DNA of 64,000 nt, taken from contig JAZRMF010000001.1 of assembly GCA_045647355.1 (NCBI GenBank), positions 81,714-145,713 of the forward strand, in the 5' to 3' direction. The translations under genes were made by a program, and so were the position numbers. The notes under the pieces were generated by a model. It was given only the letters and a program-made list of their open reading frames with translations, made no database searches and had not been told where the DNA came from. The stretch's first letter is position 1, and every line of letters starts with the position of its first letter. The stretch comes from Candidatus Enterousia sp. Lineage in GTDB: Bacteria; Pseudomonadota; Alphaproteobacteria; Rs-D84. Below, piece after piece: positions 4,390 through 37,935 of the stretch.

Positions 4390-7300
4390 TTATGCCTTTT
4401 GTATTGATATTCCAAAGTTATACCCTTCGATGTCTTTAAAGTATTCGGCATCACCGGGTGCCATTTCACGGATTAACGCATCCGCCATAATACGTTTACG
4501 ATGCTGTTCGATTGCACCAGACAGTGCCAAATCCGCCGTATAGGTAAGATTTATTCTGTCGGATACATCCAAACCAATTTCTTTACGTGTGTCTTGGATA
4601 AATCGCAACGCATCGTTCGCCAAACCTTCGGCAATCAATTCTGAATTAAGTTCCGTATCCAAAATCACAACCGCCGTATTATCGGGCAGGGCGATTCCAG
4701 TTACACCATCTTTGATAGTTAAACGGTTTTCAAATTCATCTGCATTCAATGTGTATGAACCGACAACCAATTTATCACCATCCAATTCATAATCGCCACG
4801 TTTTACGGCCGGTATGATTTCACGTAATGCACCACCCAGGCGGCTACCGATTTTTGGTGTGACCAAGTATATGAAACTGTCTGCGACTTTATTCGCGCTG
4901 TCCACCCATTCAACAGATTTCACATTTAATTCATCACGAATTATATTTGTGTAATCTGGCATTGCGTGTCCACCCGCAACCGTCAATTTGGCAAGTGGCA
5001 AACGATTACGCAATTTGTATTGTTCGCGCAACTGTTTACCTGCGGACACTATTGCCTGAACCCGGCGCATATCGGTCACAATATTCATATCCACAGAATC
5101 TGCGACAGGCCAATCTTCCAAATGCACGGATTCTTTGCCTGTTAAATTCTTGTAGATATATTCCGATATAAACGGTGCGAACGGTGCCATTATCTTGGCC
5201 AGATTTACCAACACATAATATAACGTATTAAATGCGGTATTATCTTCATCCCAGAAGCGGTCACGATTACGACGGATATACCAGTTATTCAATATATCCA
5301 AGAATCTAATAAATTCTTTGATTGCTATATCAGGTTTATACTGGTTCAAAGAATCCGTTGTGATTTTCATCAATCGGCTTAATTCAGCCATGATGTATTT
5401 ATCCAACAGATTCGTAGATGTATTGTTCATCTCGGCTGTGATATTCCCTGCATTGGCGTACAATGTAAAGAAGTGATACGCATTCCAAAGCGGTGTCAAA
5501 ATCGTTTTGATTGTATCGCCAAATACTTTACCTTCTTTATCCACACCAACTGTTTCCGCCTTCATAAATGTGCTGCCTTGGATGAATAAACGTATTGCAT
5601 CCGCACTGTATGTTTCTAATTGTTCAGACGGTTCAACATAGTTGTGTAATGATTTCGAGAATTTTCTTTTTTGTTCGTCACAAATCAGACCATTGGCCGA
5701 CACAACACGGAACGCAGGTTTATCAAACAGCGCAACCGCCATAACCATCAACCCATAGAACCATCCACGTGTTTGTTCGTCCGCTTCGATAATGTAATCA
5801 GCCGGAAATGTCTTTTCAAACACATCTTTGTTTTCAAATGGGTAATGCAGGTGTGCAAACGGCATAGAACCACTTTCAAACCAACAATCCAAAACATCGG
5901 GTATACGTTTCCATCCGTCTTTTTCCAATTTATCCAATGTTGGGCGATGCAAATCGTCTATCTTGGTGCCAAAGAATTCTTCCATTTCGGCGATAGAACC
6001 GAATACCTTGTATTCGCCGTTTCTTTCCCAAATTGGTAAAGGAACACCCCAATATCTGTTTCTGGTTATACCCCATTCACGTGCGTTCTCAATCCATGAC
6101 AAGAATCGATTACCTGCAGACGTCCATGTTGTTTGGGTCTTGGTTATTTCAACCAACCTGTCACGGATTTTTGGCACATCAACATACCATGCATCGGTCG
6201 CACGATAGATAAGTTTTTCTTTACTACGTGGGCCATATGGGTAACTGTGCTTGTGCTGGTCCTTTTTAACCAGTATGCCATTACTGCGCAACCAGTCTAT
6301 TATTTTTGGATTTGCATCAAAAATATTCATACCCGGCCAATCTTTTACTGTTGAATCAAAATTACCAAAGTCATCAACATTTAATATGACTGGGAATTTT
6401 GGATCAATTGCTTTGGCCGCCCAATAATCATCTTCACCATATGCCGGGGCAATATGAACGATACCCGTACCATCACCATCCGAAACATAATCCGCAGGAA
6501 TTATCGTATACAGGCCATGTCCTTCTTTGGCCAAATCTGTATAGTATGGGAATATCGGTGTATAGTGCAAACCAACCAATTCGGCACCCGTACATTCGCC
6601 AACCTTTTCCGATGTCGCAAATATCTTTTCATACGCAGACACCCTTGATTCTGCCAAGATATATACATGGCCATCATCGTGGCGCATTTTTACATACTTC
6701 ATCTTTGGGTTTACGGCCAATGCAGAATTCGCCGGCAATGTCCATGGTGTTGTCGTCCATGCAATTGCACGTTCACCATTTTCCAATTCAAACCAGACGG
6801 TCACCGTATCATCGACAACATCCTTGTATTCTGATGAAGCCTCGGAATTAGAAAGGACGGTTCCCAATTTCCAATCATACGGATTAACTTTGAAATCTTT
6901 ATACAACAAACCTTTGTCATATAACTGTTTCAATCCCCATATTACAGATTCCATATAATTTTTATCCATGGTGCGATAACCATAATTGTCACCACCATCA
7001 ACCCAACGGCCAACGCGTTCAACAAATCGCAACCATCCGTTGCAGTATGTTGTCACACTGGTTCTGCATAAATCGCAGAACACATCTATGCCGTCTTGTT
7101 CAACAATTTTCTTGGCGGTGCGGCCTTCTTGTTGTTCAACGGCTGTTTCTGCCGGTAACCCATGGCAATCCCAACCAAGTTCGCGTTTTACATATCTTCC
7201 GCACATGGTTTTATAACGGGAAACCATATCTTTTATACACGAAACCCCCAAGTGTCCCCAATGCGGTAAACCATTGGCAAACGGTGGACCATCATAGAAA

Positions 7301-7428
7301 TTAAATGGTTCACCCATTTTTGTCTTTTCTAGTGATTTATGAAACGTATCATCTTGCCGCCAAAAGTCCAACACTTCATGTTCCAATTCAGAAAAGTTTA
7401 CTTTCGGTTCTGTTTTTTTATATGCCAT
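4390..7428 (-). CDS. ileS: Isoleucine--tRNA ligase (IleRS type 2-like)
   Basis: FYDGPPFANGLPHWGH, GWDCHGLP, WTTTPWTLP, GDGTGIVHIAP and KFSKS; type-2-like C-terminus without zinc finger; start at MAYKK after GGAG. Confidence 0.97.
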   Translation of the reverse strand: MAYKKTEPKVNFSELEHEVLDFWRQDDTFHKSLEKTKMGEPFNFYDGPPFANGLPHWGHLGVSCIKDMVSRYKTMCGRYVKRELGWDCHGLPAETAVEQQEGRTAKKIVEQDGIDVFCDLCRTSVTTYCNGWLRFVERVGRWVDGGDNYGYRTMDKNYMESVIWGLKQLYDKGLLYKDFKVNPYDWKLGTVLSNSEASSEYKDVVDDTVTVWFELENGERAIAWTTTPWTLPANSALAVNPKMKYVKMRHDDGHVYILAESRVSAYEKIFATSEKVGECTGAELVGLHYTPIFPYYTDLAKEGHGLYTIIPADYVSDGDGTGIVHIAPAYGEDDYWAAKAIDPKFPVILNVDDFGNFDSTVKDWPGMNIFDANPKIIDWLRSNGILVKKDQHKHSYPYGPRSKEKLIYRATDAWYVDVPKIRDRLVEITKTQTTWTSAGNRFLSWIENAREWGITRNRYWGVPLPIWERNGEYKVFGSIAEMEEFFGTKIDDLHRPTLDKLEKDGWKRIPDVLDCWFESGSMPFAHLHYPFENKDVFEKTFPADYIIEADEQTRGWFYGLMVMAVALFDKPAFRVVSANGLICDEQKRKFSKSLHNYVEPSEQLETYSADAIRLFIQGSTFMKAETVGVDKEGKVFGDTIKTILTPLWNAYHFFTLYANAGNITAEMNNTSTNLLDKYIMAELSRLMKITTDSLNQYKPDIAIKEFIRFLDILNNWYIRRNRDRFWDEDNTAFNTLYYVLVNLAKIMAPFAPFISEYIYKNLTGKESVHLEDWPVADSVDMNIVTDMRRVQAIVSAGKQLREQYKLRNRLPLAKLTVAGGHAMPDYTNIIRDELNVKSVEWVDSANKVADSFIYLVTPKIGSRLGGALREIIPAVKRGDYELDGDKLVVGSYTLNADEFENRLTIKDGVTGIALPDNTAVVILDTELNSELIAEGLANDALRFIQDTRKEIGLDVSDRINLTYTADLALSGAIEQHRKRIMADALIREMAPGDAEYFKDIEGYNFGISIQKA

Positions 7429-7456
7429 TTTTATGTACTCCATATGCTGTTATTAT

Positions 7457-8321: not shown

Positions 8322-8397
8322 TGGTGCCGGTGATAGGACTTGAACCTACGACCCCCTCATTACGAATGAGATGCTCTACCAGCTGAGCTACACCGGC
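8322..8397 (-). tRNA. tRNA-Thr(CGT)
   Basis: GCCGGTGTAGCTCAGCTGGTAGAGC...TTCGTAA loop...GGTTCAAGTCC...ACCA cloverleaf with encoded CCA. Confidence 0.95.
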
Positions 8398-16297: not shown

Positions 16298-17917
16298 TTA
16301 TTCTTCTGGTAATTCAATACGTGTGAACAGGTTTTCTGGGACAGTAAATTTTTCACCGTTTGCAATTCTGTGTTCGTACATTGTTGGCCAAGATAAATCA
16401 TGGTTGCCATCAAATATACCGCGAATCTTGTCCGCCGCATCCGGTATAAATGGTGCAGATATACGCGCGAACAAATCAATTAATTGAAAACACTCGTTCA
16501 ACACCGCCGCCGCGGTTGCCGTATCACCATTTTTAACCAATGCCCATGGTTCTTTTTCGGTCATATATTCATTTGCGATACCGTAAATATCGCGCAGGGC
16601 TATAATAGATTTACGGAATTCACATGCGTCCAATGCACCCGTTAATTCCGCTAATTTTTCATTTACACGATGCGCCAATGTTTCATCCATCGTGGCACCG
16701 GTCGGAACCGTGTCACCAAAGTTTTTCTGTGACAGTTTGCATACACGTGACACAAAATTGCCCAACAATCCGTTCAAATCTTTATTAACAATTTCGGCAA
16801 AACGCGTCATTGTAAAGTCTGTATCATCTGTTTCCGGTGCAGATGCAAGCAGGGCATAACGCCAGCAATCAGATGGTGCAATATTTAATGCCTCGTCTAA
16901 AAATATTCCGTTACCGGTTGATTTGGAAATCTTGGCACCATTAAAGTTCAAGAAATTTTGACCCTTTAATACATCAACTGTTTTCCAATTGTCATCCATT
17001 GCCAATTCGTAGGCTGGGAAAAACACAGAATGGAAAGATACATTATCCTTGGCCATGAATTGTGTATAGTGGCAATCTGGGTTTTTCCACCAGGACGCCC
17101 AATCTGGATTTGCAATTTGCGAAATAGAAACATATCCCCATGGTGCATCAAACCACACATAGAAAACTTTGTCTTCGTAACCCGGTTTGTTTACCGGAAT
17201 ACCCCATTTCAAATCACGCGTAATTGGATTATCATGCAATCCTTCGTCCAACCATTTATTTGCAATTTTAATTGCGGTTTTTGGCCAACCAACACGCGAA
17301 TTTATCCATGCGCGCAGTTTATCTTGCATTTTACTTAATTTGAAATACAGATGTTTTGTTTCGCGCATTTCAACCGGGGATGATGGGTCAATAGAACTGT
17401 GTGGATTTATCAATTCATCTGGATCCAGTGACGCACCGCATTTTTCACATTCGTTTCCGTATGCTTTTTCATACCCACACTTTGGACATGTGCCAATAAC
17501 ATAACGGTCGGCCAAGAATTTCTTTTCATTTACAGAATAGGGCTGTTTAGAGGCTTTTTCTTCTATCATGCCCAATGAATCTAAACGATTAAACAATTCA
17601 TGAATCAGTTTTTCATGTTGGGGGGTATGTGTGCGCCCGTATAAATCAAAAGACAATTTGAAATCACGCACCGCGTCCAGGTGTTTTGCACGATATTTAT
17701 CAACATAATCTTCCACCGACATATTCTCGCGTGCCGCGCCGATTTCGGATGTTGTTCCATGTTCATCAGACCCGCCAATATACAAAACATCACGACCCAT
17801 TGCACGACAGAAACGGGCGTATACATCAGACGGCAATAAACAGCCAATTAAATGCCCAATATGCAAATTATTATTTACGTATGGTAATGCCGAAGTAATA
17901 AGATATTTTTTGCTCAT
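16298..17917 (-). CDS. metG: Methionine--tRNA ligase (short form without C-terminal tRNA-binding domain)
   Basis: ITSALPYVN..HIGH, SDEHG, CPKC/CEKC knuckles, YVWFDAP and KISKS. Confidence 0.97.
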   Translation of the reverse strand: MSKKYLITSALPYVNNNLHIGHLIGCLLPSDVYARFCRAMGRDVLYIGGSDEHGTTSEIGAARENMSVEDYVDKYRAKHLDAVRDFKLSFDLYGRTHTPQHEKLIHELFNRLDSLGMIEEKASKQPYSVNEKKFLADRYVIGTCPKCGYEKAYGNECEKCGASLDPDELINPHSSIDPSSPVEMRETKHLYFKLSKMQDKLRAWINSRVGWPKTAIKIANKWLDEGLHDNPITRDLKWGIPVNKPGYEDKVFYVWFDAPWGYVSISQIANPDWASWWKNPDCHYTQFMAKDNVSFHSVFFPAYELAMDDNWKTVDVLKGQNFLNFNGAKISKSTGNGIFLDEALNIAPSDCWRYALLASAPETDDTDFTMTRFAEIVNKDLNGLLGNFVSRVCKLSQKNFGDTVPTGATMDETLAHRVNEKLAELTGALDACEFRKSIIALRDIYGIANEYMTEKEPWALVKNGDTATAAAVLNECFQLIDLFARISAPFIPDAADKIRGIFDGNHDLSWPTMYEHRIANGEKFTVPENLFTRIELPEE

Positions 17918-17935
17918 TTACCCATCCTTTTTATG

Positions 17936-17962
17936 AAAAAGGGACGCCAAACGGGGCGTCCC
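17936..17962 (-). terminator. Attenuator terminator upstream of metG
   Basis: Minus strand GGGACGCC-CCGTTT-GGCGTCCC-TTTTT (8-bp stem), about 20 nt before the metG start. Confidence 0.85.
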
Positions 17963-17992
17963 AAAGAATCCCGTTCAAACTTGTTCTAAAAA

Positions 17993-18010
17993 TTAGTTTT
18001 GCATTCGCAT
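17993..18010 (-). CDS. Putative metG leader peptide MRMQN
   Basis: ATG CGA ATG CAA AAC TAA preceded by AGAGGA; two Met codons; followed by antiterminator/terminator sequences. Confidence 0.55.
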   Translation of the reverse strand: MRMQN

Positions 18011-18036
18011 TTTTTATCTTTTGTCCTCTGAAAATC

Positions 18037-18113
18037 TGGTGGGTGATATTGGACTCGAACCAACGACCTTTACGATGTCAACGTAACGCTCTAACCAACT
18101 GAGCTAATCACCC
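18037..18113 (-). tRNA. tRNA-Val(GAC)
   Basis: GGGTGATTAGCTCAGTTGGTTAGAGCG...TTGACAT loop...GGTTCGAGTCC...ACCA. Confidence 0.96.
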
Positions 18114-18125
18114 AAGGCAGTCGCC

Positions 18126-18153
18126 ATTATAACAAAGAATTTGGCGATTGCAA
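18126..18153 (-). promoter_or_regulatory. Promoter for tRNA-Val (and probably metG)
   Basis: TTGCAA-16 nt-TATAAT with extended -10 TG. Confidence 0.7.
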
Positions 18154-18157
18154 GTTT

Positions 18158-18266
18158 TTAGTGGTTAGTGTTAGTGGATAGTTGTTAGTGCGGGTATCTG
18201 GAATATTTTCACAATCACGAAATTGTTCCAGATATTACTAACCACTTACACTAGCCACTAACCACT
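18158..18266. repeat. About 110-bp imperfect palindrome with TTAGTG(G) repeat arms (MITE/REP-like)
   Basis: AGTGGTTAGTG (18160-70) and CACTAACCACT (18256-66) terminal IR; inner TATCTGGAA/TTCCAGATA IR. Confidence 0.75.
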
Positions 18267-18271
18267 CTCTG

Positions 18272-20596
18272 CTACTTATCACGGACATGGGCTGGGCATT
18301 TCTTTTCCACCGCCGCGATTATGTCGCCGTGCAATTTTGCCAAATCGGCCTCTGACATTTTTTCGGTTGGGATTATTGTCACACTGAATGCCACAGATTT
18401 ATTGCCGTCCGACATTTCAAATGAATCAAACACCGTAATATCAGACACCATGTTTGATGCCCCACGTGCGGCAGACACCAAATTGGCCGCCGGGAAATCG
18501 TTTGGCACAATAAACGCGAAATCGCGCGATATCGGTTGAAAATCTGTTACCGGAATCTTTTGATATTTTGGATTCTTGGGCAGGTTTTCAATATCTTCGA
18601 CCAATCCAATAAACACGTTTGTTTTTATGTGCATTTGTTTTGCAACAGACGGATGCAACTGTCCAAATTCGGCCAGAACTTTCTTGCCTTGGACGATTCT
18701 GCCATATCTGTATGGATGCGCCCAAAGTGGTACATTATCTGTATCAATAGTATATTTCTGGGCACCAAGTAATGACACTAAATCTGATTTAACATCGAAC
18801 AAATCAACCGGTCTATTGCGTTTCAGCCAATGCTTTGGCGATGTCACACCACACCGGATAATGCATATTGATGTATGTTGCGCCCCCGGGGTATCACCAT
18901 CAAATACTGTTCCCAATTCAAACATGTTGATATCAGAAAATCCACGTTTTTCATTATTGGCAACCGCAATCAACAGATTTCCAATCAAACTATTACGTGC
19001 CGTATCCAAATCAACAATAATTGGATTCGCAACACTGATTATTGGCTTGTCTGTCACCAACTTTTCAACTTTTGAATTACCAAAACCAAAAGAAATCGTT
19101 TCGTTCAAACCACGATTCGCCAATTTTTGTTTCAATTCTAAATCAAAATCTTTATGCGTCGTGCTTGTTATGTCCTTTGGCATTTCTTTAAGGCCGATTT
19201 TTTCGTACCCATACATACGCACCAATTCAGACACAATTGTTTCAGCTATCACAATATCTGTTCTTTGCGGGTTTGGTGTGATTACCCAATCGCCGTTCTT
19301 GTTTTCCTTTATTTCGAAATGCAGTTTCTGCAAAATTTCTTTTTGTATTTTGGCATCCAGTTTTATACCCGTTTTCTGTTCCATCAAAGACGGGTTATAC
19401 ACTACGGATTCCGGTGTATAGGACGCACGTCCCGCGACACCAACGTTTACAATTTCACCACCACATTCATCCATTATTATTTTTGCAGCCATCGCCAATG
19501 CCGCACCCGTTCCATCTGGGTTGATACCACGTTCATAACGATATGAAGAATCTGTGGATATGCCGTATCTTTTTGATGATTTACGAACAGTAACTGGGTT
19601 AAAGTATGCCGATTCAAGGATGATATTTTTTGTATCATCGCTTGTGCAACTGCGTTCACCACCAACGATACCGGCCAATGCCAACACACCTGCATCGTCA
19701 CATATAACCAAATCTTTATCACACAGTTCGTAATCCGTTCCGAATAAATCTGTAAATTTTTCACCATTGTTTGCCATACGAACGGTTATATCACCAACAA
19801 TTTTATCGGCATCAAAACAATGCATAGGTTGTGCCAAATCATAACAAACATAATTGGTTGTATCAATTGGCGCATTCTTTGGATTTATACCCGCAGAAAG
19901 CAATCTTGATTGCACGGTTTTATTTGATGGCGCATTTTTTATACCGCGTATTTCACAGAAACGATACGTTGGGCATGCCTCTGGGGCAAGCAGGTTAACC
20001 TTGCGTTCACCCTTGATTGGTTTTAATTCATCAATTTTATTTTCAATGTATGTACCGGCACCCGCCGCAGACAAATCTAATGAGATTCCGCGCAAAGATA
20101 AATAATCTGGACGGTTTGGTGTAATAGATGTTTCAAAAACCGCACCCGCCAATCCACGTAACGCAGATATTGGTTGCCCAATAACCTCGGCCTTGTCATC
20201 TAATTCGATAATGCCAGTGTGGTCATCGTTTATGCCTAATTCGCGACCACTGCACATCATGCCATCAGACACAACCCCACGCAGTTTTCCAGATTGAATT
20301 TCATGACCTTCGATTATGCATCCTGGGGTGGCCAGCGCAGATATCAAACCAACACGTACATTTGGCGCACCACATACAACCTGACGCAATTTTCCAGAAC
20401 CATCGTCAACCATTAACACGTGCATATGGTCACTGTTTTCGTGTGGTTTGCATTCAACAATTTTTGCCGCAATTGGTAACACAGGTTCAGATAAATCTTC
20501 AACCTCTAACCCGATTGCCGTCAATTTATCCGCGATTTCTTGTGGGGTTAATTTTGTATCCAAATATTGTTTTAACCATTCATAAGACCATTTCAT
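18272..20596 (-). CDS. pheT: Phenylalanine--tRNA ligase beta subunit
   Basis: MKWSYEWL, VVCGAPNV, ITPNRPDYLS, LESAYF, YRYERG and FDX-ACB C-terminus (ISRDFAF). Confidence 0.97.
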   Translation of the reverse strand: MKWSYEWLKQYLDTKLTPQEIADKLTAIGLEVEDLSEPVLPIAAKIVECKPHENSDHMHVLMVDDGSGKLRQVVCGAPNVRVGLISALATPGCIIEGHEIQSGKLRGVVSDGMMCSGRELGINDDHTGIIELDDKAEVIGQPISALRGLAGAVFETSITPNRPDYLSLRGISLDLSAAGAGTYIENKIDELKPIKGERKVNLLAPEACPTYRFCEIRGIKNAPSNKTVQSRLLSAGINPKNAPIDTTNYVCYDLAQPMHCFDADKIVGDITVRMANNGEKFTDLFGTDYELCDKDLVICDDAGVLALAGIVGGERSCTSDDTKNIILESAYFNPVTVRKSSKRYGISTDSSYRYERGINPDGTGAALAMAAKIIMDECGGEIVNVGVAGRASYTPESVVYNPSLMEQKTGIKLDAKIQKEILQKLHFEIKENKNGDWVITPNPQRTDIVIAETIVSELVRMYGYEKIGLKEMPKDITSTTHKDFDLELKQKLANRGLNETISFGFGNSKVEKLVTDKPIISVANPIIVDLDTARNSLIGNLLIAVANNEKRGFSDINMFELGTVFDGDTPGAQHTSICIIRCGVTSPKHWLKRNRPVDLFDVKSDLVSLLGAQKYTIDTDNVPLWAHPYRYGRIVQGKKVLAEFGQLHPSVAKQMHIKTNVFIGLVEDIENLPKNPKYQKIPVTDFQPISRDFAFIVPNDFPAANLVSAARGASNMVSDITVFDSFEMSDGNKSVAFSVTIIPTEKMSEADLAKLHGDIIAAVEKKCPAHVRDK

Positions 20597-21584: not shown

Positions 21585-21617
21585 TAAATATGGGGCCAAC
21601 TTACGCGGCCCCATAAT
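21585..21617 (-). terminator. Strong hairpin between rplT and pheS
   Basis: Minus strand TATGGGGCC-GCGTAAGTT-GGCCCCATA-TTTATT. Confidence 0.6.
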
Positions 21618-21649: not shown

Positions 21650-22015
21650 TTATTTATCCCCTGCGATAAATCGTTTTGCGGTTTCAATAAGTGTGGCGAA
21701 ATTCTTGTCGCCGGCATATGCCATTTCGGCCAAAACCTTGCGATCCAATTCAACACCGGCCTTGCGCAGACCATTCATGAATTGGCTGTATGTGATGCCT
21801 GATGGACGAACCGCCGCATTGATACGAACAATCCACAAACTGCGGAAATCGCGTTTTTTGGTGCGACGATCACGATATGCATACTGACCCGCTTTTTCTG
21901 ATTTTTCACGTGCGGCACGATACGTGCTGCTGTGGCGTCCAAGGAAGCCCTTGGCACGTTCCAAAATTTTATTGTGTTTTTGACGAACTGTTGTTCCACG
22001 TTTTACTCTTGCCAT
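21650..22015 (-). CDS. rplT: 50S ribosomal protein L20
   Basis: MARVKRG...[22 protein letters not shown]. Confidence 0.98.
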
Positions 22016-28791: not shown

Positions 28792-30410
28792 TGGCGAAAT
28801 ACGACAATAATTTTACAGACCAATTACGTGAAAGACTTTCTATTGTAGACGTTGTTTCCCGCCGTGTACCACTTACAAAAAAAGGTCAAAATTATTGGGG
28901 ATGTTGCCCATTTCATAATGAAAAAACTCCGTCTTTTTCTGTTCGTGAAGACAAAGGTTTTTATCACTGTTTTGGGTGCGGTAAACATGGTGATATTATT
29001 TCGTTTACAATGGAAATGGAACATGTTGATTTTATGGCCGCAATCAAAGAATTGGCCGAAATGGCCGGGATTCCATTACCAGAATACAAACCTAAAACAC
29101 AACAACAAATAGAAGCAGAAGAAACTTATATTAGTATAACTGCGGATGCGGCAAAATTGTATGCGGAAAAACTTTTCACGCCCGATGGTGCGCATGCGTT
29201 AGAATATATACGCGGTCGTGGATTTACCGATGAAATGATAAAAAAATATGGTATTGGGTATGCCCCGAAAAATAACATTATTTCAAATAAATTCGTAAAC
29301 ACACGCCAAGATAAATTAATTGCAACTGGTTTGGTACGGCGTGGCGAATACGGCATTTATGATTTCTTTCGTGACAAATTAATGTTTCCAATATTTAATG
29401 CACATGGCCAAATTGTTGCTTTTTCGGGGCGTAGCCTGGATGGGTCAGAACCAAAATATATAAATACAACCGATACAGAAATGTTCCATAAAAGACAAAC
29501 TTTGTTCGGTTTTAATTTTGCACGTGAAAATATCCATCGGGCAAATCGCGCAATTATTGTCGAAGGTCAAATAGACGCAATTCAAATGCAATGTAATGGT
29601 TTTGGTGAAACGGTTGCGCCACTTGGTACCGCCTTGACCGAAGATCATATTGCAATACTTTGCAAGGCGAATAGAAATATAACATTTTGCTTTGATGGTG
29701 ACGGCGCAGGACAAAAAGCCGCGGCCAGGGCGTGTGGTATTATTTTACCGTTCTTGCGTGATAATTCTGATGTGCGTTTTGCATTTGTGACGGGTGGTAA
29801 AGACCCGGATGAAATACTGCGTAAATCGGGCAGGGCAGAAATGGAAAAAATTATAAATGGTGCTATGCCTTTGGTTGATTTTTTGTGGAAAATTACAAAT
29901 ACAAATTATCTTGTTAATACACCATCTGGGAAAACACAGGCGGAAAAATTCCTTAAATCACAATTAGAAAAAATAACTGATAAATTACTTCGTGCCGAAT
30001 ATGAACATGAATATGATTCACGCAAATTTAATGAATGGCATAAATGGAAGAAAAAATCAGACACACAAAATATTGATGTGCCTGATATAGAATTAACAAC
30101 AAAAAATACTCTATTATTTATCATTAATAAATATCCAGAATTGGCCGAACGTTATGGTGATTTTATAAGCAGTTTTCATATTGATTTTGATTCAAATACG
30201 CCAGAGATGAACCTTGATTTTGAATCCGCAGAAAAGTATTTAATATCTTTAAAGTTACAAAAGTATCTTGAAAAATTAACAACTGATAGAAAACAACTGG
30301 TCGCCGATGCGTTAAAAAATAATAATTCTGATTCTATTAAAGAAATCGATGAAAAGATAAAGAAAGCAAAAGAAAAATTAGAATTATTATTAGATACAAA
30401 TGATAAATAA
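28791..30410 (+). CDS. dnaG: DNA primase
   Basis: CPFHNEKTPSF..HCFGC zinc finger, KYINT, VEGQID and CFDGDGAG TOPRIM. Confidence 0.97.
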   Translation: MAKYDNNFTDQLRERLSIVDVVSRRVPLTKKGQNYWGCCPFHNEKTPSFSVREDKGFYHCFGCGKHGDIISFTMEMEHVDFMAAIKELAEMAGIPLPEYKPKTQQQIEAEETYISITADAAKLYAEKLFTPDGAHALEYIRGRGFTDEMIKKYGIGYAPKNNIISNKFVNTRQDKLIATGLVRRGEYGIYDFFRDKLMFPIFNAHGQIVAFSGRSLDGSEPKYINTTDTEMFHKRQTLFGFNFARENIHRANRAIIVEGQIDAIQMQCNGFGETVAPLGTALTEDHIAILCKANRNITFCFDGDGAGQKAAARACGIILPFLRDNSDVRFAFVTGGKDPDEILRKSGRAEMEKIINGAMPLVDFLWKITNTNYLVNTPSGKTQAEKFLKSQLEKITDKLLRAEYEHEYDSRKFNEWHKWKKKSDTQNIDVPDIELTTKNTLLFIINKYPELAERYGDFISSFHIDFDSNTPEMNLDFESAEKYLISLKLQKYLEKLTTDRKQLVADALKNNNSDSIKEIDEKIKKAKEKLELLLDTNDK

Positions 30411-30411
30411 T

Positions 30412-30975
30412 TTACTTTTCTTGTGATTGTGCAAGGTTATACATTTGTTCTATGATTTTATTATATTTATTTTTATCCGCATAATGAAGAAATATAACTA
30501 TACAAAATAAAGACCAAAAAATGTAATTTTCTTCGGGTTGTATTATGTTATACAATTCTGGAAATTTCATATCAATAATAAAATTAGATACCGCCATAAT
30601 CCCCATAACCAGCGCCAAATATTTCTTGGTTATTGCCAAAATACGCCAAAAAGATACATCACGAGACATATTTTCCAACATTTGTTTTTGTTCGTGTGTC
30701 ATATCTTTTGTTAATCCCTTTCTTTCGGCATATTGATATGTGTCCATACCATTAAATTTTGTTCTGCCAAGGACAACACAAGGAATTAAGTTTCTATAAC
30801 GAACCTCTATCTTTTTTTGTTTAATAAATTCTTCACGTTCTTTATCGGTCAATTTCAACATAAAATATTTGGTTTTTGGATCTAATAAATCTTCAAGTGT
30901 ATATGTCTCTTCGGCCAATAATTTGTCCGCTATTTCTAGATTTTCAATTTCTTTTAATTCACGTCTTAATGTCAA
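30412..30975 (-). CDS. Hypothetical membrane protein (187 aa)
   Basis: ORF with two hydrophobic segments near the C-terminus. Confidence 0.7.
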   Translation of the reverse strand: MTLRRELKEIENLEIADKLLAEETYTLEDLLDPKTKYFMLKLTDKEREEFIKQKKIEVRYRNLIPCVVLGRTKFNGMDTYQYAERKGLTKDMTHEQKQMLENMSRDVSFWRILAITKKYLALVMGIMAVSNFIIDMKFPELYNIIQPEENYIFWSLFCIVIFLHYADKNKYNKIIEQMYNLAQSQEK

Positions 30976-31036
30976 TATATATACCTTTTTAGATTTTTTA
31001 AAATATCATATACATAATACTTGTCAATAAAAAAGC

Positions 31037-31062
31037 AAAAATCCGCCGTATAGCGGATTTTT
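31037..31062 (-). terminator. Terminator after ychF
   Basis: AAAAATCCGC-CGTATA-GCGGATTTTT. Confidence 0.8.
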
Positions 31063-31091
31063 TATTAACAACTTATATTTATAATTCTTAA

Positions 31092-32171
31092 CTAGTTATT
31101 AAACAAGAAATGGCATATATCGCCTTCTTGCATAACATAATCACGTCCCACAAGGCGCATTTTGCCGGCCTCTTTGACCGCAACTTCACCACCAAGCGCG
31201 ATATAATCTGATGGGGATATAACCTCGGCCCGGATAAAACCTTTTTCAAAATCAGTATGAATTTTACCGGCGGCCTGGGGCGCGGTCATTCCACGTGTTA
31301 TCGTCCACGCATGTGCTTCTTTTGGTCCAACAGTATAAAATGTTTGTAGTCCCAATGTTTCATACCCGGTTTTTATAACCTTTTCTAACCCAGATTGTTC
31401 CAAACCCAAATCATTTAAGAACATTTTGCGTTCTTCGGGGTCGACAATTTGTGCAATTTCCATTTCTATTTTACCAGAAATTATTAAAACTGGGGCACGC
31501 CCTGAAAACTTTTGCACAACCATATCGGAATATTTGTTACCATTTGCCGCCGCCGCTTCTTCAACATTACATACATATATAACAGGTTTTGCGGTCAGTA
31601 AATTAAACGGTTTTGAATCAACATCTGTTTCACGTGCCGGTATAGATTTTTCAAGATTTTCTGCAATAACTTTGGCATCAGCAAGTAATTTTATTGCCTC
31701 TTTATCCAATCCATGTGCCTTTTTTTCAAGGTTTTTCATCTGTTTGTTTATACTTTCAAGATCCGCCATCATAAGTTCTGTTTCAATAGTATCAATATCA
31801 GCAATTGGATCTATGCGACCATCAACATGAACAATATCATCATTTTCAAAACAACGTACAACGTGAATTATAGCATCTGTTTCAAGAATATTCCCCAAGA
31901 ATTTATTTCCCAAACCTTCGCCATTTGATGCACCACGAACCAGGCCGGCAATATCGACTATTTCAAGCTGTGTCGGTATTATTTTTGCCGAATTATCAAC
32001 AGCCGCCAATTTATGTAATGTTTCGTCTGGTACCACAACACGACCAGTATTTGGTTCAATAGTACAAAAAGGATAATTTTGCGCATCCGCCGCCGCACTT
32101 TGTGTTAATGCATTAAATAGTGTCGATTTTCCAACATTTGGTAAACCAACAATTCCACAATTGAAACCCAT
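31092..32171 (-). CDS. ychF: Redox-regulated ATPase YchF
   Basis: GIVGLPNVGKSTLFNAL, NYPFCTIEPN, DIAGLV and TGS C-terminus. Confidence 0.98.
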   Translation of the reverse strand: MGFNCGIVGLPNVGKSTLFNALTQSAAADAQNYPFCTIEPNTGRVVVPDETLHKLAAVDNSAKIIPTQLEIVDIAGLVRGASNGEGLGNKFLGNILETDAIIHVVRCFENDDIVHVDGRIDPIADIDTIETELMMADLESINKQMKNLEKKAHGLDKEAIKLLADAKVIAENLEKSIPARETDVDSKPFNLLTAKPVIYVCNVEEAAAANGNKYSDMVVQKFSGRAPVLIISGKIEMEIAQIVDPEERKMFLNDLGLEQSGLEKVIKTGYETLGLQTFYTVGPKEAHAWTITRGMTAPQAAGKIHTDFEKGFIRAEVISPSDYIALGGEVAVKEAGKMRLVGRDYVMQEGDICHFLFNN

Positions 32172-32198
32172 AATAAAATCCTTTATAATACAGATAAT

Positions 32199-32885
32199 AT
32201 GTCATACATGTGGAACAAATTCAATATAAAAACTTTTCCATCAGAAACTATTGTTTACTGTGATGGGGAATATATGCCCGAACTTTCAACAATAGAAAAC
32301 ACAGAAACAATAGATAAAAAATACGATTTGCCGATACATATTATATATGTCGGTGATATACGTGATGATAACACATTAAATATAAATATAAATGTACCAA
32401 ATCAACCGGTATTTTTAAGTGTTAATACAGAAAATAAATCCCCGGCCTTTTTGAACATTTTTATCAAAAACACCGGGAAAAATTCTGAAATTCGTGGCCA
32501 TATTTTGTGTAAAAATTCGTCTGAATTATCTTTAAAAATTATTGCTGAACATGATGCTCCTGATACCAGTATTTTAATTCAGGCAAAAGTTATTGGTTCA
32601 AAAAACAGTTCATCCACAGCATCTGGGGTCGCAATAATTAATCCAAATTGTAAGAATTGTGGATCTGATATACGATTTGCCGGACATAGTTTGGACAAAA
32701 GTGCAAAAATACGATTTTTACCACACCAACGTATTTTATCTGTTCCAGACTTTGCAGACCATAGTGCGTATATTTTCCACCCAGATGAGCAAAAAGAGAA
32801 CTATTTACGTATGGCCGGCCTGTCAGGAGCAGAGGTTAAAGATGCCTTGGTCGAGGCATTTATGAATGATTTCAACCTGTTTTAA
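32199..32885 (+). CDS. SufD-like (SufBD family beta-helix) protein
   Basis: Beta-helix-like sequence and C-terminal DHSAY...YLRMAGLSGAEVKDALVEAF, resembling SufD; no other suf genes adjacent. Confidence 0.6.
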   Translation: MSYMWNKFNIKTFPSETIVYCDGEYMPELSTIENTETIDKKYDLPIHIIYVGDIRDDNTLNININVPNQPVFLSVNTENKSPAFLNIFIKNTGKNSEIRGHILCKNSSELSLKIIAEHDAPDTSILIQAKVIGSKNSSSTASGVAIINPNCKNCGSDIRFAGHSLDKSAKIRFLPHQRILSVPDFADHSAYIFHPDEQKENYLRMAGLSGAEVKDALVEAFMNDFNLF

Positions 32886-32942
32886 TAAAAAAATACGGTA
32901 TTCCAACCGGCGTACCGTAAAATAGAGAAGAAAAACACGGGA

Positions 32943-33077
32943 TTATTTTCTTTTAAAACCCTGTTTTGCTTTGAATTTCGGGTTATCAGGATCGATTAAA
33001 ACAATCTGTTTTCCACGACGAACCTGTTTAATATTTCCACGTTTTTTCCACGCACGTAGCGAACTTAAAAATTTCAT
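32943..33077 (-). CDS. rpmJ: 50S ribosomal protein L36, type B (Zn-free, YkgO-like); missed by the ORF track
   Basis: Translates to MKFLSSLRAWKKRGNIKQVRRGKQIVLIDPDNPKFKAKQGFKRK. Confidence 0.9.
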   Translation of the reverse strand: MKFLSSLRAWKKRGNIKQVRRGKQIVLIDPDNPKFKAKQGFKRK

Positions 33078-33387
33078 TTTATATCCTTTTTGCCAAGGCA
33101 TTATAAACACTTTTTAACAAAAATCAAATATTATATTTATATTTTGTTGTTATTGTTGTACCTGTTGAAAATGTTGAAAAGTTGTTATTAACAAAGTTTT
33201 AAACAATTTTTAGGCTGATTTTTGCGGTTTTTAACATTTTTGTTGAAAAACAAACTAGGTTGAAAATCGTTTAAAATATGGCGTTTTTTTCAACATTTTT
33301 AACAATTTTACCTTTTTGTTTTTTATGCTTGTTGAAAATTGTTGAAATTGTTATAATAAAATTATCCATGGAGGGATTCTTAGTATA
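33078..33387. other. Candidate chromosomal replication origin
   Basis: AT-rich 310-bp intergenic region with five exact TGTTGAAAA/TTTTCAACA boxes plus near matches, and TTAA-N7-TTAA at 33188-33202. Confidence 0.55.
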
Positions 33388-33693
33388 ATGAGACAACGAG
33401 TACTAAAAGCTTTGGCGAATCCATCGCTTTTGTTTGGGGTGCCGTATGCCCTGGCGGTTCTGAATTTTATGGTTCAGTTCAGTATATTTATTGTCTTGTA
33501 TATAGTTGGTTTGATGTTTTTTGATATAGATATACTTATTAAGTATGTAAATCCAGTGTATTTTTTTGTGTCTGTGGCCGGTGTTCATATGTTTTGTGCA
33601 AGGCTTGCAAAAAATGATTCACAAATAAGTCAGGTTTTGGTCGCTAAAATTAAAATGATGAGAAATAAAATACCACGGAGATTATCTGCATGA
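33388..33693 (+). CDS. virB3: Type IV secretion system protein VirB3
   Basis: KALANPSLLFGVPY start, two TM segments; ATGA overlap with virB4. Confidence 0.8.
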   Translation: MRQRVLKALANPSLLFGVPYALAVLNFMVQFSIFIVLYIVGLMFFDIDILIKYVNPVYFFVSVAGVHMFCARLAKNDSQISQVLVAKIKMMRNKIPRRLSA

Positions 33694-36110
33694 TAGAAAG
33701 TTTTTTTAAATATTTTTCCGGTGGTGGTTTTTCGGTGACTATGACGCTGACTATCATGGTTGTTGCGGTTATTTTTGTTTTTATTATTTTAATGATGTAT
33801 GTACCGACAATTATAAAGCATGTCTTTCCAAAGTTTGGTTATAGACATTATTCTGACTATGTTCCATTTGATACTGTTTATACAGATGATTCTTTGGAAA
33901 TTAATAATGGGGCGTTGGTTCGTGTTTACCGTGTGTCTGGGGTGCAAACAAGTATGCAAACAGACGAACAACGTGAAAAATTCTTGGATTTACGGTCCCA
34001 GATTTTTAATCAAATTCATGACCCAAATGTAATTTTACGTTTCTTTACTGTGCGTGATGCAGTGGCAGAAAATACAGATTACGAGTTTGACCAGCCTGTA
34101 TTACAAAAAATATATGATAAATGGCGGTCCCAGGGTCTAAGAATATTTATCAATAATTATTATATAGTATTGTCTGTTAATAGTGGCGCAAATTCACGTG
34201 ATTTATTAAATCAATATGGAAATTACATAGAATCTATACTTGCACCATATAATCCGCGTGTTTTAAAAAATAATTCACGTGATAATATGGCACGATTTTT
34301 TGGTCGTATATTTTCACCAATTACAAAACCAGAACCCGAGGTTTGTGACGAACAAATCCGGGAAGTTTCAACCGTTGATGATGTTGAATTCTTATCAAAT
34401 GGTCTTGTAAAATATATAAGTGGTGATAGAGAATATTATTCTGGGTTGGTGTCTTTCCGCGCAGCCCCAGATTATTTAGATGAAGAATTTTTTGATTCTA
34501 TTAATACAATTCAAACAGAAATGATTTGTATGAACGGATTCAAAATTATGGGGGCATCGGATGTTGCATCTGTTCTGCGTCAACGCCGCGTTGTGGCATC
34601 AAAAGAAAATGATGCAACCGAAGAACAACTTTCAGATGCAGAATCTGTGATGGATGAAAATGTTTCTGGTAATCAAACATTGGTTAATTATTATCCTTTA
34701 TTCTTGGTATTCGGTAAAACCGAAGAAGAATTAAAAGAATATATTGATGAGTTTAAGAAAATATGTGCGTCATTCGGTGTTTCGCCAATTCAAGAGAGTT
34801 TCGCAACCAAGGTTTCTTGGTTTTCAATGGTGCCTGGGTTCGATACTTTCCCGCGTACATTTAAAATGTTGTCACGTGCGGCGGCGATAAGTATTCCAAT
34901 GTCCAGTACACCACGTGGTATTACAAATTCTGATTGGGGTCAGGGACCATTGGTTGTATTTCCAACCGCCCAAGGTACACCATATCAATTTCAATTCCAT
35001 GTTTCAGATAAACCTGCGGCGGTGGGGCATACGCTTACTATTGGTCCGACCGGTGGTGGTAAAACAACATTATTCTCGTTCTTAATTGCGCAGTCTTTGC
35101 GTCATAAAAAATTAAAAGCATTTTTCTTTGATAGAAACAAAGGTGCAGAAATCTTTACACTTGCGGTTGGTGGAAAATATATAACTATGCAGGGTAAAGA
35201 AAAATCTGATGCCGCGTTTTTAACACACCTTAATCCGTTAAAGATGCAAGATACTGTTGCAAATCGTGCGTTCTTGCGTCGTTGGTTTGCGATGATTTCT
35301 GAACAGGGTGATGCAACATCTGCGGATGAAATTGCACGTGCGGTATCGGTTAATTTTGATTATTTGTCTGATAAAGATCGTATGCTTAAAAACCTGTGGG
35401 AAAGTTGTTTTTCATCATCGGGGAATATGCGCGCGGCACTTAAGAAATGGGTTGATCCGTTGCAATATGGTGAAATATTTAATGAAGACGAAGATACACT
35501 TGACCTGCAATCACGTCTTACAACATTTGACTTTACCGATATTTTACAAGATTCAACACTTGCGCCGGCGGTTATATCGTACATATTACATCGTATAAAT
35601 AACACAACGGTATCTGGTGGAAATCCGTCACTTATTATGATTGACGAAACCGCGCCTATGTTGGAAAACAAAATGTTCCGTGATAACTTTATCACAGGTT
35701 TACAAGAAGGTCGTAAAAATCGTCAGGCATATATGGTCGCGTTCCAGCGTGCAAATGTTTTGGATAAATTGGGAATAGGGGACGTTGTTCGTGGTCAGGC
35801 ACAAACTATTATGTTCTTCCGTAATCCGGCGGCGGATGCGGCGGATTATGAACATTGGAATTTGAATCCATTAGAAATGGCATTTATCCAAGGTAAAGCA
35901 TATCCAAATTTAAAACGTGCAGTTTTGCTTGCGCGACCGGTTAATAATGAATCTGTGATATTGAATACAGAACTTGGTGGGTTGGGTAATTTATTGCGGT
36001 TGTTTGAATCTGGACGTTCATCGGTATTATTGGCCGAAGAATTATATCGGCAGTTTGGTTCGGCGTTTGTTGCGGAATACCTGAAAAAGCAGGGTGCAGG
36101 CGATTTATAA
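33690..36110 (+). CDS. virB4: Type IV secretion system ATPase VirB4
   Basis: GHTLTIGPTGGGKT Walker A, FFDRNKG, LIMIDE Walker B and GRKNR; downstream of virB3. Confidence 0.9.
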   Translation: MIESFFKYFSGGGFSVTMTLTIMVVAVIFVFIILMMYVPTIIKHVFPKFGYRHYSDYVPFDTVYTDDSLEINNGALVRVYRVSGVQTSMQTDEQREKFLDLRSQIFNQIHDPNVILRFFTVRDAVAENTDYEFDQPVLQKIYDKWRSQGLRIFINNYYIVLSVNSGANSRDLLNQYGNYIESILAPYNPRVLKNNSRDNMARFFGRIFSPITKPEPEVCDEQIREVSTVDDVEFLSNGLVKYISGDREYYSGLVSFRAAPDYLDEEFFDSINTIQTEMICMNGFKIMGASDVASVLRQRRVVASKENDATEEQLSDAESVMDENVSGNQTLVNYYPLFLVFGKTEEELKEYIDEFKKICASFGVSPIQESFATKVSWFSMVPGFDTFPRTFKMLSRAAAISIPMSSTPRGITNSDWGQGPLVVFPTAQGTPYQFQFHVSDKPAAVGHTLTIGPTGGGKTTLFSFLIAQSLRHKKLKAFFFDRNKGAEIFTLAVGGKYITMQGKEKSDAAFLTHLNPLKMQDTVANRAFLRRWFAMISEQGDATSADEIARAVSVNFDYLSDKDRMLKNLWESCFSSSGNMRAALKKWVDPLQYGEIFNEDEDTLDLQSRLTTFDFTDILQDSTLAPAVISYILHRINNTTVSGGNPSLIMIDETAPMLENKMFRDNFITGLQEGRKNRQAYMVAFQRANVLDKLGIGDVVRGQAQTIMFFRNPAADAADYEHWNLNPLEMAFIQGKAYPNLKRAVLLARPVNNESVILNTELGGLGNLLRLFESGRSSVLLAEELYRQFGSAFVAEYLKKQGAGDL

Positions 36111-36111
36111 A

Positions 36112-36723
36112 ATGTTAAAAAATACGTTTGTTTTGTTGTTATCTTGTTTTTGTGGATTTGCCGTTGCGGATGATTGTGTTAAATACAAATTATTACCAAA
36201 AATAAATATAACTAATCCAATATATGAAAGACATATTATCCAACCAGATGAACCAATGGATAAATTACACGGTAATGTTCTTGCAACGTTTGTTCAAGAT
36301 TTTGATTTGGTTGTTGATATAATTGTTCAAGATGGTGGATATTGTGTTGTTCTTAAAAAATTAGATGCAGATATTGGATATAATGATTTCTTGGTTAAAA
36401 TTGATAAATCGCATATGCGTGGGTCATGCACGTATAGTGCGATTTTAAATCATGAAAAAAAACATATTGATGCATATTTATCCGTGACACGTGATATGAA
36501 TTCTGATATTAAAGATTCTGTATTTAATGCGGCGAATTCTGTAATGCCAGTATTTGTTGATTCACGTGATAAAATAGATTCTGTGATAGAAACTATGAAT
36601 TATAAAATACAATCTCATCCAGAGGTTGTTTTGATAAAACAAAAAATTAATGCAGCCCAAGAAATTCGTAACAAACGTGTTGATCAAAACGAAGATAATA
36701 GTGAATTAAAAAGCTGTATGTAA
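36112..36723 (+). CDS. Secreted protein with HExxH motif (DUF922-like putative Zn metalloprotease)
   Basis: Signal peptide MLKNTFVLLLSCFCGFAVA; ILNHEKKHIDAY. Confidence 0.55.
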   Translation: MLKNTFVLLLSCFCGFAVADDCVKYKLLPKINITNPIYERHIIQPDEPMDKLHGNVLATFVQDFDLVVDIIVQDGGYCVVLKKLDADIGYNDFLVKIDKSHMRGSCTYSAILNHEKKHIDAYLSVTRDMNSDIKDSVFNAANSVMPVFVDSRDKIDSVIETMNYKIQSHPEVVLIKQKINAAQEIRNKRVDQNEDNSELKSCM

Positions 36724-36761
36724 AAACTGTCTATATGCCTGTTTTTAACGTATACAGTAAT

Positions 36762-37460
36762 TTATCCAAAATAAAACCAAATTGCAATTGGTGCAAGTAC
36801 AGCCGTCATAAGACCGGAAATTACAATAGCCAAACTGCTAAAAGAACCTTCTATATGTCCCATTTCCATTGCTTTGACAGTACCGGCGGCATGTGATGCA
36901 TTACCAATAGCAAGTCCACGCGATATCGGATTTTTTAATTTCATCCATTTACATAGTTTATCACTGACCGATGCACCAAGTATTCCTGTTATAATAACCG
37001 CCGAAACAGTTAATGATACAATACCACCAAGTTTTCGTGTAATCCCGATGGCAAGTGCCGTTGTCACTGATATTGATACCAATGAACGCGCAATAACATC
37101 GGCAAGTCCAAGTAATGCAACAACCAAACATACTGATACAACCGATGCGATTACACCAACAAACATTGCAAATAGTATCGTCCAAATATGTTTTTTAAGT
37201 AACGGTAATTGTCGATACATTGGAACCGCAAAACATACTGTTACCGGCATAAGAAAGTATGTTAAATATTTTGCACTTTGGTTATAATTATCATATGGAA
37301 TTTTAAACAACAGCAAAACAAAAACCACAACAGCGGTTGCCAAAAAGAGTGGGGTGGTGAACGGATTTGGCCATTTTTTATTGATAATTGTTGCAAGTAT
37401 AAATGCCGCAACTGTTATTGCCGCCCCAAAATATGTCGATGTAGTAAAAAGTTCCATCAT
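36762..37460 (-). CDS. lrgB: LrgB family protein
   Basis: PVTVCFAVPMY, SISVTTALA and GLAIGNASHAAGT. Confidence 0.92.
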   Translation of the reverse strand: MMELFTTSTYFGAAITVAAFILATIINKKWPNPFTTPLFLATAVVVFVLLLFKIPYDNYNQSAKYLTYFLMPVTVCFAVPMYRQLPLLKKHIWTILFAMFVGVIASVVSVCLVVALLGLADVIARSLVSISVTTALAIGITRKLGGIVSLTVSAVIITGILGASVSDKLCKWMKLKNPISRGLAIGNASHAAGTVKAMEMGHIEGSFSSLAIVISGLMTAVLAPIAIWFYFG

Positions 37461-37813
37461 TTTTTATTTTTCCCACGTTCAAGAAAGAAATCTGCGGTTT
37501 TTCCCGTAATAACCATTGTCACAAAGTATGCCACGACCAGCAAAATAACCAAATAATACCATATGTTCGATATTTCTGGCCAAATATCAATGATTGCAAC
37601 CGCCGGCGCCACAAAAAACAGCGCCATAATACCATGAAACCAATCTGCAACATCACAAACCCATTCTAATTTTATAATATGTGTGCAAAGTGCCAAAAAT
37701 AACAACAAAAGGCCGTAAATACTGCCCGCGATAGGCAGTGGAATCAGAAATTCGCACAGTTCGCCCAAAAAGACGAAAATAAGTATAATCATAAATTGAA
37801 ATAGATATTTCAT
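37457..37813 (-). CDS. lrgA: CidA/LrgA family protein
   Basis: LPIAGSIYGLLLLF, MALFFVAPAV; overlaps the lrgB start. Confidence 0.9.
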   Translation of the reverse strand: MKYLFQFMIILIFVFLGELCEFLIPLPIAGSIYGLLLLFLALCTHIIKLEWVCDVADWFHGIMALFFVAPAVAIIDIWPEISNIWYYLVILLVVAYFVTMVITGKTADFFLERGKNKK

Positions 37814-37935
37814 GGGGCGACTCTCTCTTGGCAAGTATATTATCGAAAAATATAAAAAAATTAAAGAATAAAAAACTTGACAACACGATTTTTTGTATTA
37901 TATTGTTCCACAGAAGGTAACCAAGAGGTGCATAA

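Follow-up and report, generated by a model that had tools for sequence, protein, structure and literature searches.

A conserved five- to seven-codon reading frame and antiterminator between tRNA-Val and metG in Candidatus Enterousia: a candidate methionine-codon attenuator

Leader-peptide attenuators have been described or predicted upstream of pheST, trpS and leuS, which encode aminoacyl-tRNA synthetases; methionine genes are found under S-box/S-adenosylmethionine (SAM) riboswitches, and synthetase genes of the Firmicutes under T-boxes (PMC1262725). The locus considered here is metG, the gene for methionine--tRNA ligase, in a 64,000-nt stretch of a Candidatus Enterousia sp. genome (contig JAZRMF010000001.1, positions 81,714 to 145,713; "the window" below), where it is preceded on the minus strand by a tRNA-Val gene, a five-codon open reading frame (ORF), an antiterminator strand and an intrinsic terminator. 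A full-text literature search returned neither a methionine-codon attenuator nor a metG leader peptide, and to our knowledge no methionine-specific leader-peptide attenuator and no metG attenuator has been described. The metG leader is probably a Met-tRNA-sensing, ribosome-dependent transcription attenuator that gates read-through from tRNA-Val into metG, and, judged from its sequence, it looks like the first methionine-specific attenuator of the leader-peptide type.

The locus shares with such systems a conserved short ORF, a terminator immediately 5' of the gene and an antiterminator that is mutually exclusive with it. A 1:2 pairing (anti-antiterminator) overlapping the leader ORF was not found, and the leader of ileS in the same window has no evident one either; such a pairing characterises the classical trp type but is not general among attenuators.

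The metG leader and its conservation

The putative leader ORF in the window, ATG CGA ATG CAA AAC TAA (17993..18010, on the minus strand like every feature of the locus; MRMQN*), begins 26 nt past the 3' end of tRNA-Val. An A/U-rich spacer (17979..17992), whose first base is the U of a UAAU stop context, leads to the 5' antiterminator strand UUGAACGGG (17970..17978). This strand can form 9 bp with CCCGUUUGG (17955-17947), which runs from the final C of the 5' arm through the entire loop to the second G of the 3' arm of the predicted intrinsic terminator, GGGACGCC-CCGTTT-GGCGTCCC (17962-17941), with T5 at 17940-17936. As RNA (17936..17962) the terminator reads GGGACGCC-CCGUUU-GGCGUCCC, then UUUUU. 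The initial annotation of this DNA, made without database searches, had placed these elements correctly on the minus strand, including their order, the 26-nt distance, the 17 nt from the leader stop to AACGGG (17975-17970) and the terminator with its T5. It had taken the antiterminator to be the 6-bp match of AACGGG with CCCGTT (17955-17950); this pairing does covary in relatives and exclude the terminator, as set out below, but the helix in the window has 9 bp.

Viewed in the window alone, the leader is unremarkable. The fold of the 137-nt leader has a z-score of 0.01 against shuffled sequences, and neither an ORF of five codons, which is trivial, nor a 6-nt complement is significant by itself. 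It could thus be argued, as the initial annotation had allowed for the ORF, that the ORF and the AACGGG/CCCGTT match fell by chance beside an ordinary terminator. The test of this explanation lies in the relatives. A scan for MetG with one genome per species gave 80 loci, the closest of which (94-59% identity) come from rumen and gut metagenome-assembled genomes that bear the name Candidatus Enterousia or Alphaproteobacteria. The order of Enterousia, Rs-D84, is uncultured and has genomes of < 1 Mb (PMC12306168). Among the 39 closest genome loci, 30 have the module upstream of metG. Metagenomes were scanned with a pattern in which CGAATG, a stop-like triplet, ACGGG and YGCCCCGTT were fixed, while the start codon, the 3' arm of the terminator and the downstream gene were left free. 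Of the 57 matches, 48 are genuine and nine are chance matches. All 48 genuine matches precede a gene beginning ...KYLITSALPY, that is metG, and no other gene, and in each of them CGAATG is immediately preceded by an in-frame ATG or GTG, followed or not by AAA, a feature found in none of the nine chance matches.

Counting the window, 30 genome loci and 48 metagenome loci, there are 79 instances of the module, which comprise 66 distinct sequences, and it is kept down to ~60% MetG identity. Because it is conserved in relatives, the module is not a chance product: its recurrence with covariation at 78 other loci refutes that explanation, to which we would now assign almost no probability. At the more distant loci L040-L080, where MetG identity is below ~55% (46-51% identical), the genes have their own promoters and no leader was found. 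Two other loci of the leaderless type, L025 and L037, carry CGAATGATGCGC...GCGC...CAA(C/T)TGATT ~100-130 nt 5' of metG, which could either be left over from the leader or belong to an adjacent gene.

Both helices are supported by covariation. The antiterminator, anchored on CGGG:CCCG, has 7-9 bp in 63 of the 66 sequences, and its strands vary in concert as AACGGG/CCCGUU, UUGCGGG/CCCGUGA or UCUGACGGG/CCCGUUGGG, with CAACGGG/CCCGUUG occurring when the loop loses a U. The covariation falls at helix positions 5-8; position 7, for example, is A-U, U-G, C-G, U-A or G-U. The mean length of the helix is 8.15 bp, as against 6.98 with permuted partners (0/2000 permutations), and in a column-based check 94.2% of cells were paired (0/500 shuffles). 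For the terminator, 94% of cells were paired, with compensatory changes in five of the eight pairs and none of 500 shuffles as good. Across the family, the 3' strand of the antiterminator takes in one or more bases at the end of the terminator 5' arm, all of the loop and 1-3 bases at the start of the 3' arm. The antiterminator therefore overlaps the apical pairs of the terminator, and the two structures are mutually exclusive there, while most of the 5' arm is left free. In truncated transcripts, the antiterminator was always part of the predicted minimum-energy fold; in the full-length RNA, the terminator was predicted to be the more stable.

Transcription of metG appears to come from the tRNA gene. 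At 18126..18153, a promoter of the sigma-70 type was predicted (TTGCAA-16 nt-TATAAT, extended by TG; 10/12 matches); it presumably drives tRNA-Val (anticodon GAC, CCA encoded; 18037..18113; ARAGORN, Rfam tRNA 71.7 bits) and also the leader and metG. A TATAAT 8-12 nt 5' of tRNA-Val recurs among relatives, tRNA-Val(GAC) is found upstream of the leader, and on its strand, at every locus checked, and no further promoter was predicted in the window between the tRNA-Val promoter and metG. The metG gene itself (16298..17917, ATG at 17917; a short form of 539 aa; TIGR00398, 473 bits) starts 18 nt beyond the T-run, which leaves no room for a separate promoter; the distance from T-run to ATG is 11-34 nt in the family. 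Its Shine-Dalgarno sequence is AAGGA (17925..17929), and relatives have an AAGGA-like sequence 8-12 nt 5' of the ATG. A TATAAA-like sequence after the T-run was rejected as a metG promoter, since it has no -35 box and its transcription start would fall inside the Shine-Dalgarno sequence. Taken together, the tRNA-Val synteny and the lack of another promoter suggest that the hairpin acts both as the tRNA-Val terminator and as the gate to metG. The initial proposal that the leader is fed by the tRNA-Val promoter fits this picture, with one exception. In the metagenome relative L124 (402-520, minus strand), a promoter TTGGAA...TATAAT ends 7 nt 5' of the leader ATG, with tRNA-Val at a distance of 716 nt; the ORF would here be leaderless or nearly so.

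The initial annotation had also named the condition under which the hairpin would be just the tRNA-Val terminator. The hairpin does have the properties of a Rho-independent terminator of a tRNA unit, a GC-rich hairpin and a U-tract on the same strand, and the label is true but incomplete, since it leaves the conserved ORF and antiterminator unaccounted for. The tRNA-Val 3' end lies anywhere from 9 to 716 nt ahead of the ORF, whereas the first antiterminator pair follows the stop codon by 12-17 nt (mode 14) in all 66 sequences. The ORF and the antiterminator strand are also lost together: at L027 and L034 both are absent, and tRNA-Val, a plain terminator and metG remain.

Other features surround the tRNA gene. 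The gap between tRNA-Val and the leader holds inserts resembling miniature inverted-repeat transposable elements in L001, L004, L005, L007, L009, L011, L018, L021, L023, L031 and others; they are 50-170 nt long, have recurring ends GTGTCTCGCCGTAGC ... GCGAAGGCGGAC, leave the leader intact and look like a miniature repeat family that targets the gap after the tRNA. Upstream of the tRNA-Val/metG locus are pheT and pheS. The pheT stop and the tRNA-Val promoter flank an inverted repeat (18153-18266), nested and imperfect, with 30-nt arms that are 83% complementary, an inner 16-nt pair and TTAGTGG-like units; it could be a pheT terminator or a small mobile element.

Constraints on the micro-ORF and the ileS parallel

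The 66 distinct leaders follow a single plan: (A/G)TG, an optional in-frame AAA or ATG, an invariant CGA-ATG, two free codons and TAA or TAG. The peptides are MKRMQI (30), MRMQN (14), MRMYK (5), MRMYN (3), MRMQI (3), MKRMKI (2), MMRMYN (2), MMRMYK (2) and five singletons, so that what is conserved is M-(K/M)-R-M-x-x; the initial annotation was right to look for conservation of the micro-ORF but had expected M-x-M. The start codon is ATG in 64 and GTG in two, the stop codon TAA in 64 and TAG in two, and a U directly follows the stop in 64 of the 66, the remainder of the spacer showing no conservation in sequence. Lengths differ only through 3-nt insertions, which are AAA or ATG; in every case the internal ATG stands two codons ahead of the stop. 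Codons 4 and 5 vary freely, synonymous swaps included (CAA/CAG, ATA/ATT, TAC/TAT, AAC/AAT). Among the loci that share 90% or more MetG identity with the window, both inserted and uninserted forms are found, which indicates that the insertion or deletion happened more than once. These constraints are of the coding type. Candidate regulatory codons are the start codon and the one invariant internal AUG, with an extra AUG (MMRM) in four of the 66; they are cognate to metG and not in tandem.

Two extensions of the coding scheme were considered and rejected. A second ORF starting from an NUG ahead of the terminator arm or from UUG 17978 has no conserved frame, and the spacer lengths are not multiples of three, as read-through of UAA into another in-frame stop within the antiterminator strand would require.

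A second leader in the same window offers a parallel. When the window was searched for terminators just 5' of a long ORF, four cases were found, three of which precede pheS, metG and ileS, all three synthetase loci of the window, at 21-24 nt 5' of the ATG of the longest ORF (3/3); the fourth, at 44327, lies inside a gene. The ileS gene (minus strand, 4390-7443 or 7427; TIGR00392, 733 bits) likelier starts at ATG 7427, which has GGAG 10 nt upstream. Ahead of it are a leader ORF, ATG AAA ACA AAA GAA ATA ATT ATT ATA AGG TAA (MKTKEIIIIR; 7540-7508, minus strand), and a terminator, GGGCGC-ATAG-GCGCCC (7480-7465, minus strand), followed by seven T. The antiterminator is strong, starts ~5 nt past the stop, sequesters both terminator arms and is the minimum-free-energy fold. 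Four consecutive Ile codons are kept in five relatives (MKTKEIIIIE, MNKKTIIIIK, MKAKQIIIIR, MNKKEIIIIR and MKQIAIIIIK), among which the other residues change. On this codon pattern, the ileS leader is a textbook Ile-codon attenuator, plainly of the codon-sensing type, and the parallel is the strongest argument that the AUG of the metG leader would be a sensing codon.

The sequence directly 5' of the ileS leader ends in a tRNA 3' end in L105, L128 and L133, and ARAGORN confirmed a tRNA-Thr(CGU) on the same strand as the leader in L105 and L133, a layout that mirrors the one from tRNA-Val to metG. In the window, the tRNA-Thr (8322-8397) is ~780 nt further upstream of the ileS leader, which has a promoter-like sequence of its own, TGGAAA...TATATT, at ~7577-7553. 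The two leaders together suggest that this clade, with its small genomes, puts synthetase genes behind tRNA genes and gates the read-through by cognate-codon mini-ORFs (metG, ileS).

The third case is less clear. A terminator of 9-10 bp (21589-21615, minus strand) lies between rplT (21650-22015) and the pheS ATG at 21568, 21 nt before pheS, and is kept in two relatives. Two small overlapping frames enter this hairpin, UUG UUU UUU GUU UAU GAU UAU... and AUG AUU AUG GGG..., the latter reading through it. The evidence for a Phe-codon leader before pheS is ambiguous, neither frame being clearly a Phe leader.

Proposed operation and competing explanations

The order in which RNA polymerase would meet the elements suggests how the switch could work. 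It would transcribe tRNA-Val, then a leader of 5-7 codons encoding fMet-(Lys/Met)-Arg-Met-x-x-stop, then the UUGAACGGG strand and finally the terminator. If UUGAACGGG is free as the top of the terminator emerges, it would pair with CCCGUUUGG, nucleation of the terminator would be blocked and metG would be transcribed. If the leader is initiated and translated fast to its efficient UAAU stop, termination would win. Translation would require that the initiator tRNA, at AUG1, and the elongator tRNA-Met, at the internal AUG, are both charged, so that low output of methionyl-tRNA synthetase (MetRS) would leave the leader empty or stalled at AUG2 and raise metG expression in an autoregulatory manner. 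We infer three parts of this scheme: translation of the ORF, Met-tRNA as the signal, and a ribosome parked at the stop that disfavours the antiterminator.

Methionine is an awkward case for attenuation, in that the same synthetase also charges the initiator tRNA. The metG element suggests a solution. With no anti-antiterminator, an untranslated, ribosome-free leader is predicted to be ON, and this would suit a methionine sensor because failure of MetRS or starvation blocks initiation as well; failed initiation would then also switch the gene on. No anti-antiterminator was detected in duplex tests of the ORF or the spacer against the antiterminator strand or the linker (z ~0 to -0.5), in which the antiterminator pair itself served as a positive control (z -3.15). 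Individual candidates fared no better. GAAU of the ORF with AUUC after GGG did not exceed shuffles, and AUUY is missing in several leaders; UAAUCUU with GGGAUU, and an upstream A-rich region with the U-rich region after the stop, were no better than shuffled controls. Pairing of the spacer with the U-tract as an outer helix of the antiterminator was no better than chance. Pairing of the ORF core with the 5' coding region of metG (z -0.94) was rejected for inconsistent partner positions, the matches arising from the GCAU-rich codons of the SALPY and HIGH motifs.

Several observations weigh against this scheme, the missing 1:2 pairing being one of them. The weak point of the mechanism is geometric. 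A ribosome with a stop codon in its A site covers ~9-10 nt downstream, as known from toeprint geometry, and at 12-17 nt past the stop the first antiterminator pair lies beyond the footprint, its GC core at 14-18 nt. Simple occlusion thus does not explain termination at metG, as it can for ileS, where the antiterminator begins ~5 nt past the stop; the caution in the initial annotation that ribosome coverage of AACGGG is borderline was well placed. The OFF signal from a ribosome that has finished the leader might instead come from steric hindrance of the polymerase at the hairpin base by the parked ribosome, from ribosome-polymerase coupling or from movement of the ribosome after termination. 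The antiterminator is also far less stable (~-10 kcal/mol as a duplex; terminator, -11 to -22 kcal/mol), and there is only a single internal sensing codon. Purines resembling a Shine-Dalgarno sequence are weak and variably spaced 5' of the micro-ORF; in the window, AGAGGA (18029-18024) is separated from the ATG by 13 nt and is not kept in relatives. The Shine-Dalgarno sequence of the ileS leader is just as poor. RNA data were uninformative: in the single metatranscriptome, X25, contigs were confined to the 3' end of metG and a portion of the tRNA; two further matching runs were of unknown type, and an X12 contig that spans the leader cannot be called RNA; a run search with a relative's sequence listed no run.

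A further difficulty is the arginine codon. It is CGA in all 66 leaders (18005-18007 in the window), although CGA makes up only 22 of the 570 Arg codons (3.9%) in the long ORFs of the window and none of their 12 Arg-Met pairs uses it. An invariant rare codon, as seen in the alignment, shows a constraint at the level of the nucleotides or of the tRNA that a simple codon-sensing model does not predict. CGA may slow or destabilise the ribosome just ahead of the AUG, or it may mark a contact at the RNA level. The former possibility leads to a variant, somewhat speculative and in our estimate unlikely, in which the leader would be a new, minimal type of sensor. A single hungry AUG, sensitised by the rare, inosine-decoded CGA in the P site, would integrate the charging of initiator and elongator Met-tRNA within a frame of five codons, and, the antiterminator being beyond the footprint, the signal would travel by a route other than occlusion, such as ribosome-RNA polymerase coupling or post-termination movement of the ribosome. 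The invariant CGA and the out-of-reach antiterminator bear on the minimum number of codons that a ribosome-based sensor needs.

The latter possibility, a contact at the RNA level, would remove the ribosome altogether. Single-stranded CGAAUG and the ACGGG/CCCGU helix could form a sensor bound by a factor in trans (perhaps a small ligand, MetRS or, by way of its CAU anticodon, tRNA-Met) whose binding would decide between antiterminator and terminator, with the ORF as a by-product. The invariance of CGAAUG in nucleotides despite the rarity of CGA speaks for such a sensor, as do the weak Shine-Dalgarno sequences, an antiterminator outside the reach of the ribosome and the L124 promoter that ends so close to the ATG. 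Its expected traces were looked for. The initial annotation saw no T-box or SAM riboswitch, and an Rfam cmscan of 17600-18500 with all 4227 families and E-values up to 10 agreed, tRNA being the sole match and neither a T-box nor any SAM family (SAM-I/S-box, SAM-II, SAM-V, SAM/SAH and others) appearing. The antiterminator loop has no conserved UGGN, no hairpin presenting CAU or CAU-loop mimic for MetRS was found, and the ORF region has no conserved pairing to anything tested. ATG/GTG and TAA/TAG alternation, in-frame insertions and a fixed gap of two codons are what translation would be expected to leave, not an aptamer, and the neighbouring ileS leader is plainly codon-sensing. We consider an RNA-only sensor quite unlikely.

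Another explanation retains the gate and drops its specificity for methionine. The hairpin would be the terminator of tRNA-Val; either the antiterminator would allow a constant leak into metG, or the micro-ORF would report general translational capacity, be it ribosome availability, Arg-tRNA at the CGA codon or inhibitors. The hairpin does end the tRNA-Val unit, and at L027 and L034 a plain terminator alone separates tRNA-Val from metG. Moreover, there is one internal Met codon only, the invariant rare CGA could be the slow step, and without an anti-antiterminator any failure of translation would result in read-through. A pure tuner, however, would need no conserved ORF at a fixed distance. 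An unspecific sensor does not account for an internal AUG that is invariant and fixed in distance from the stop across 66 sequences, with a third AUG in some (MMRM), nor for the position of all 48 genuine metagenome matches before metG and no other gene, and the ileS leader of the same genomes uses cognate Ile codons. A translation-coupled attenuator that is not specific for Met, or a constitutive tuner, thus seems doubtful, and Met-tRNA sensing by a translated leader is the reading that we favour.

Elsewhere in the window, the region ~30000-46000 has a GC content of 0.29-0.38, compared with ~0.40 in the remainder, and contains a gene for a VirB4/TrbE-like ATPase (33690-36107) and a tRNA-Met (39522-39598). 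Genes for a PilO-like protein and a T2SSE-type ATPase follow at 49715-53332. An integrated element or an island for secretion or pili may be present here.

Comparison with known systems

The physiological purpose of the proposed switch is that of T-box and SAM riboswitches, with which the metG leader also shares its 5' position and a choice between terminator and antiterminator. It differs from them in having no match in sequence or structure and no conserved UGGN; a T-box would be far larger than this element, whose constraints are of the coding type instead. The antibiotic-responsive leader ORFs of the erm/cat type are similar in that the ribosome occupancy of a very short ORF sets an RNA switch downstream. 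Those leaders control resistance genes and respond to drug-induced arrest on peptide motifs, whereas the metG leader would regulate metG, and the +x+ motif is absent in most of its variants.

In the trp, his, leu, thr and ilv attenuators of proteobacteria, the position of the ribosome on the ORF selects the hairpin and the terminator lies before the first structural gene, as proposed here. They have tandem codons, a 1:2 pairing that terminates an untranslated leader and a stop codon within a few nt of segment 2; in the metG leader this distance amounts to 12-17 nt, and the state predicted without translation is ON. The ileS leader stands nearer. It occurs in the same genomes, has the same layout of tRNA or promoter, ORF, antiterminator, terminator and synthetase gene, and likewise has a weak Shine-Dalgarno sequence and no obvious 1:2 pairing. 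It differs in its four tandem cognate codons and in fitting ribosome occlusion, which the metG leader does less simply.

Among systems described elsewhere, the attenuators of synthetase genes are the most similar, namely E. coli pheST, with its leader peptide pheM, and the predicted ones of Streptomyces trpS and leuS. They too combine a short cognate-codon ORF and an antiterminator with a terminator directly before the synthetase gene, and they achieve autoregulation through the charging of the cognate tRNA, as the metG leader would. Relative to these, the metG leader has only 5-7 codons, with a single internal sensing codon in addition to the start and an invariant rare CGA before the sensing codon. 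It has no anti-antiterminator, its antiterminator captures the terminator loop and apex and not an entire arm, and its amino acid would be methionine.

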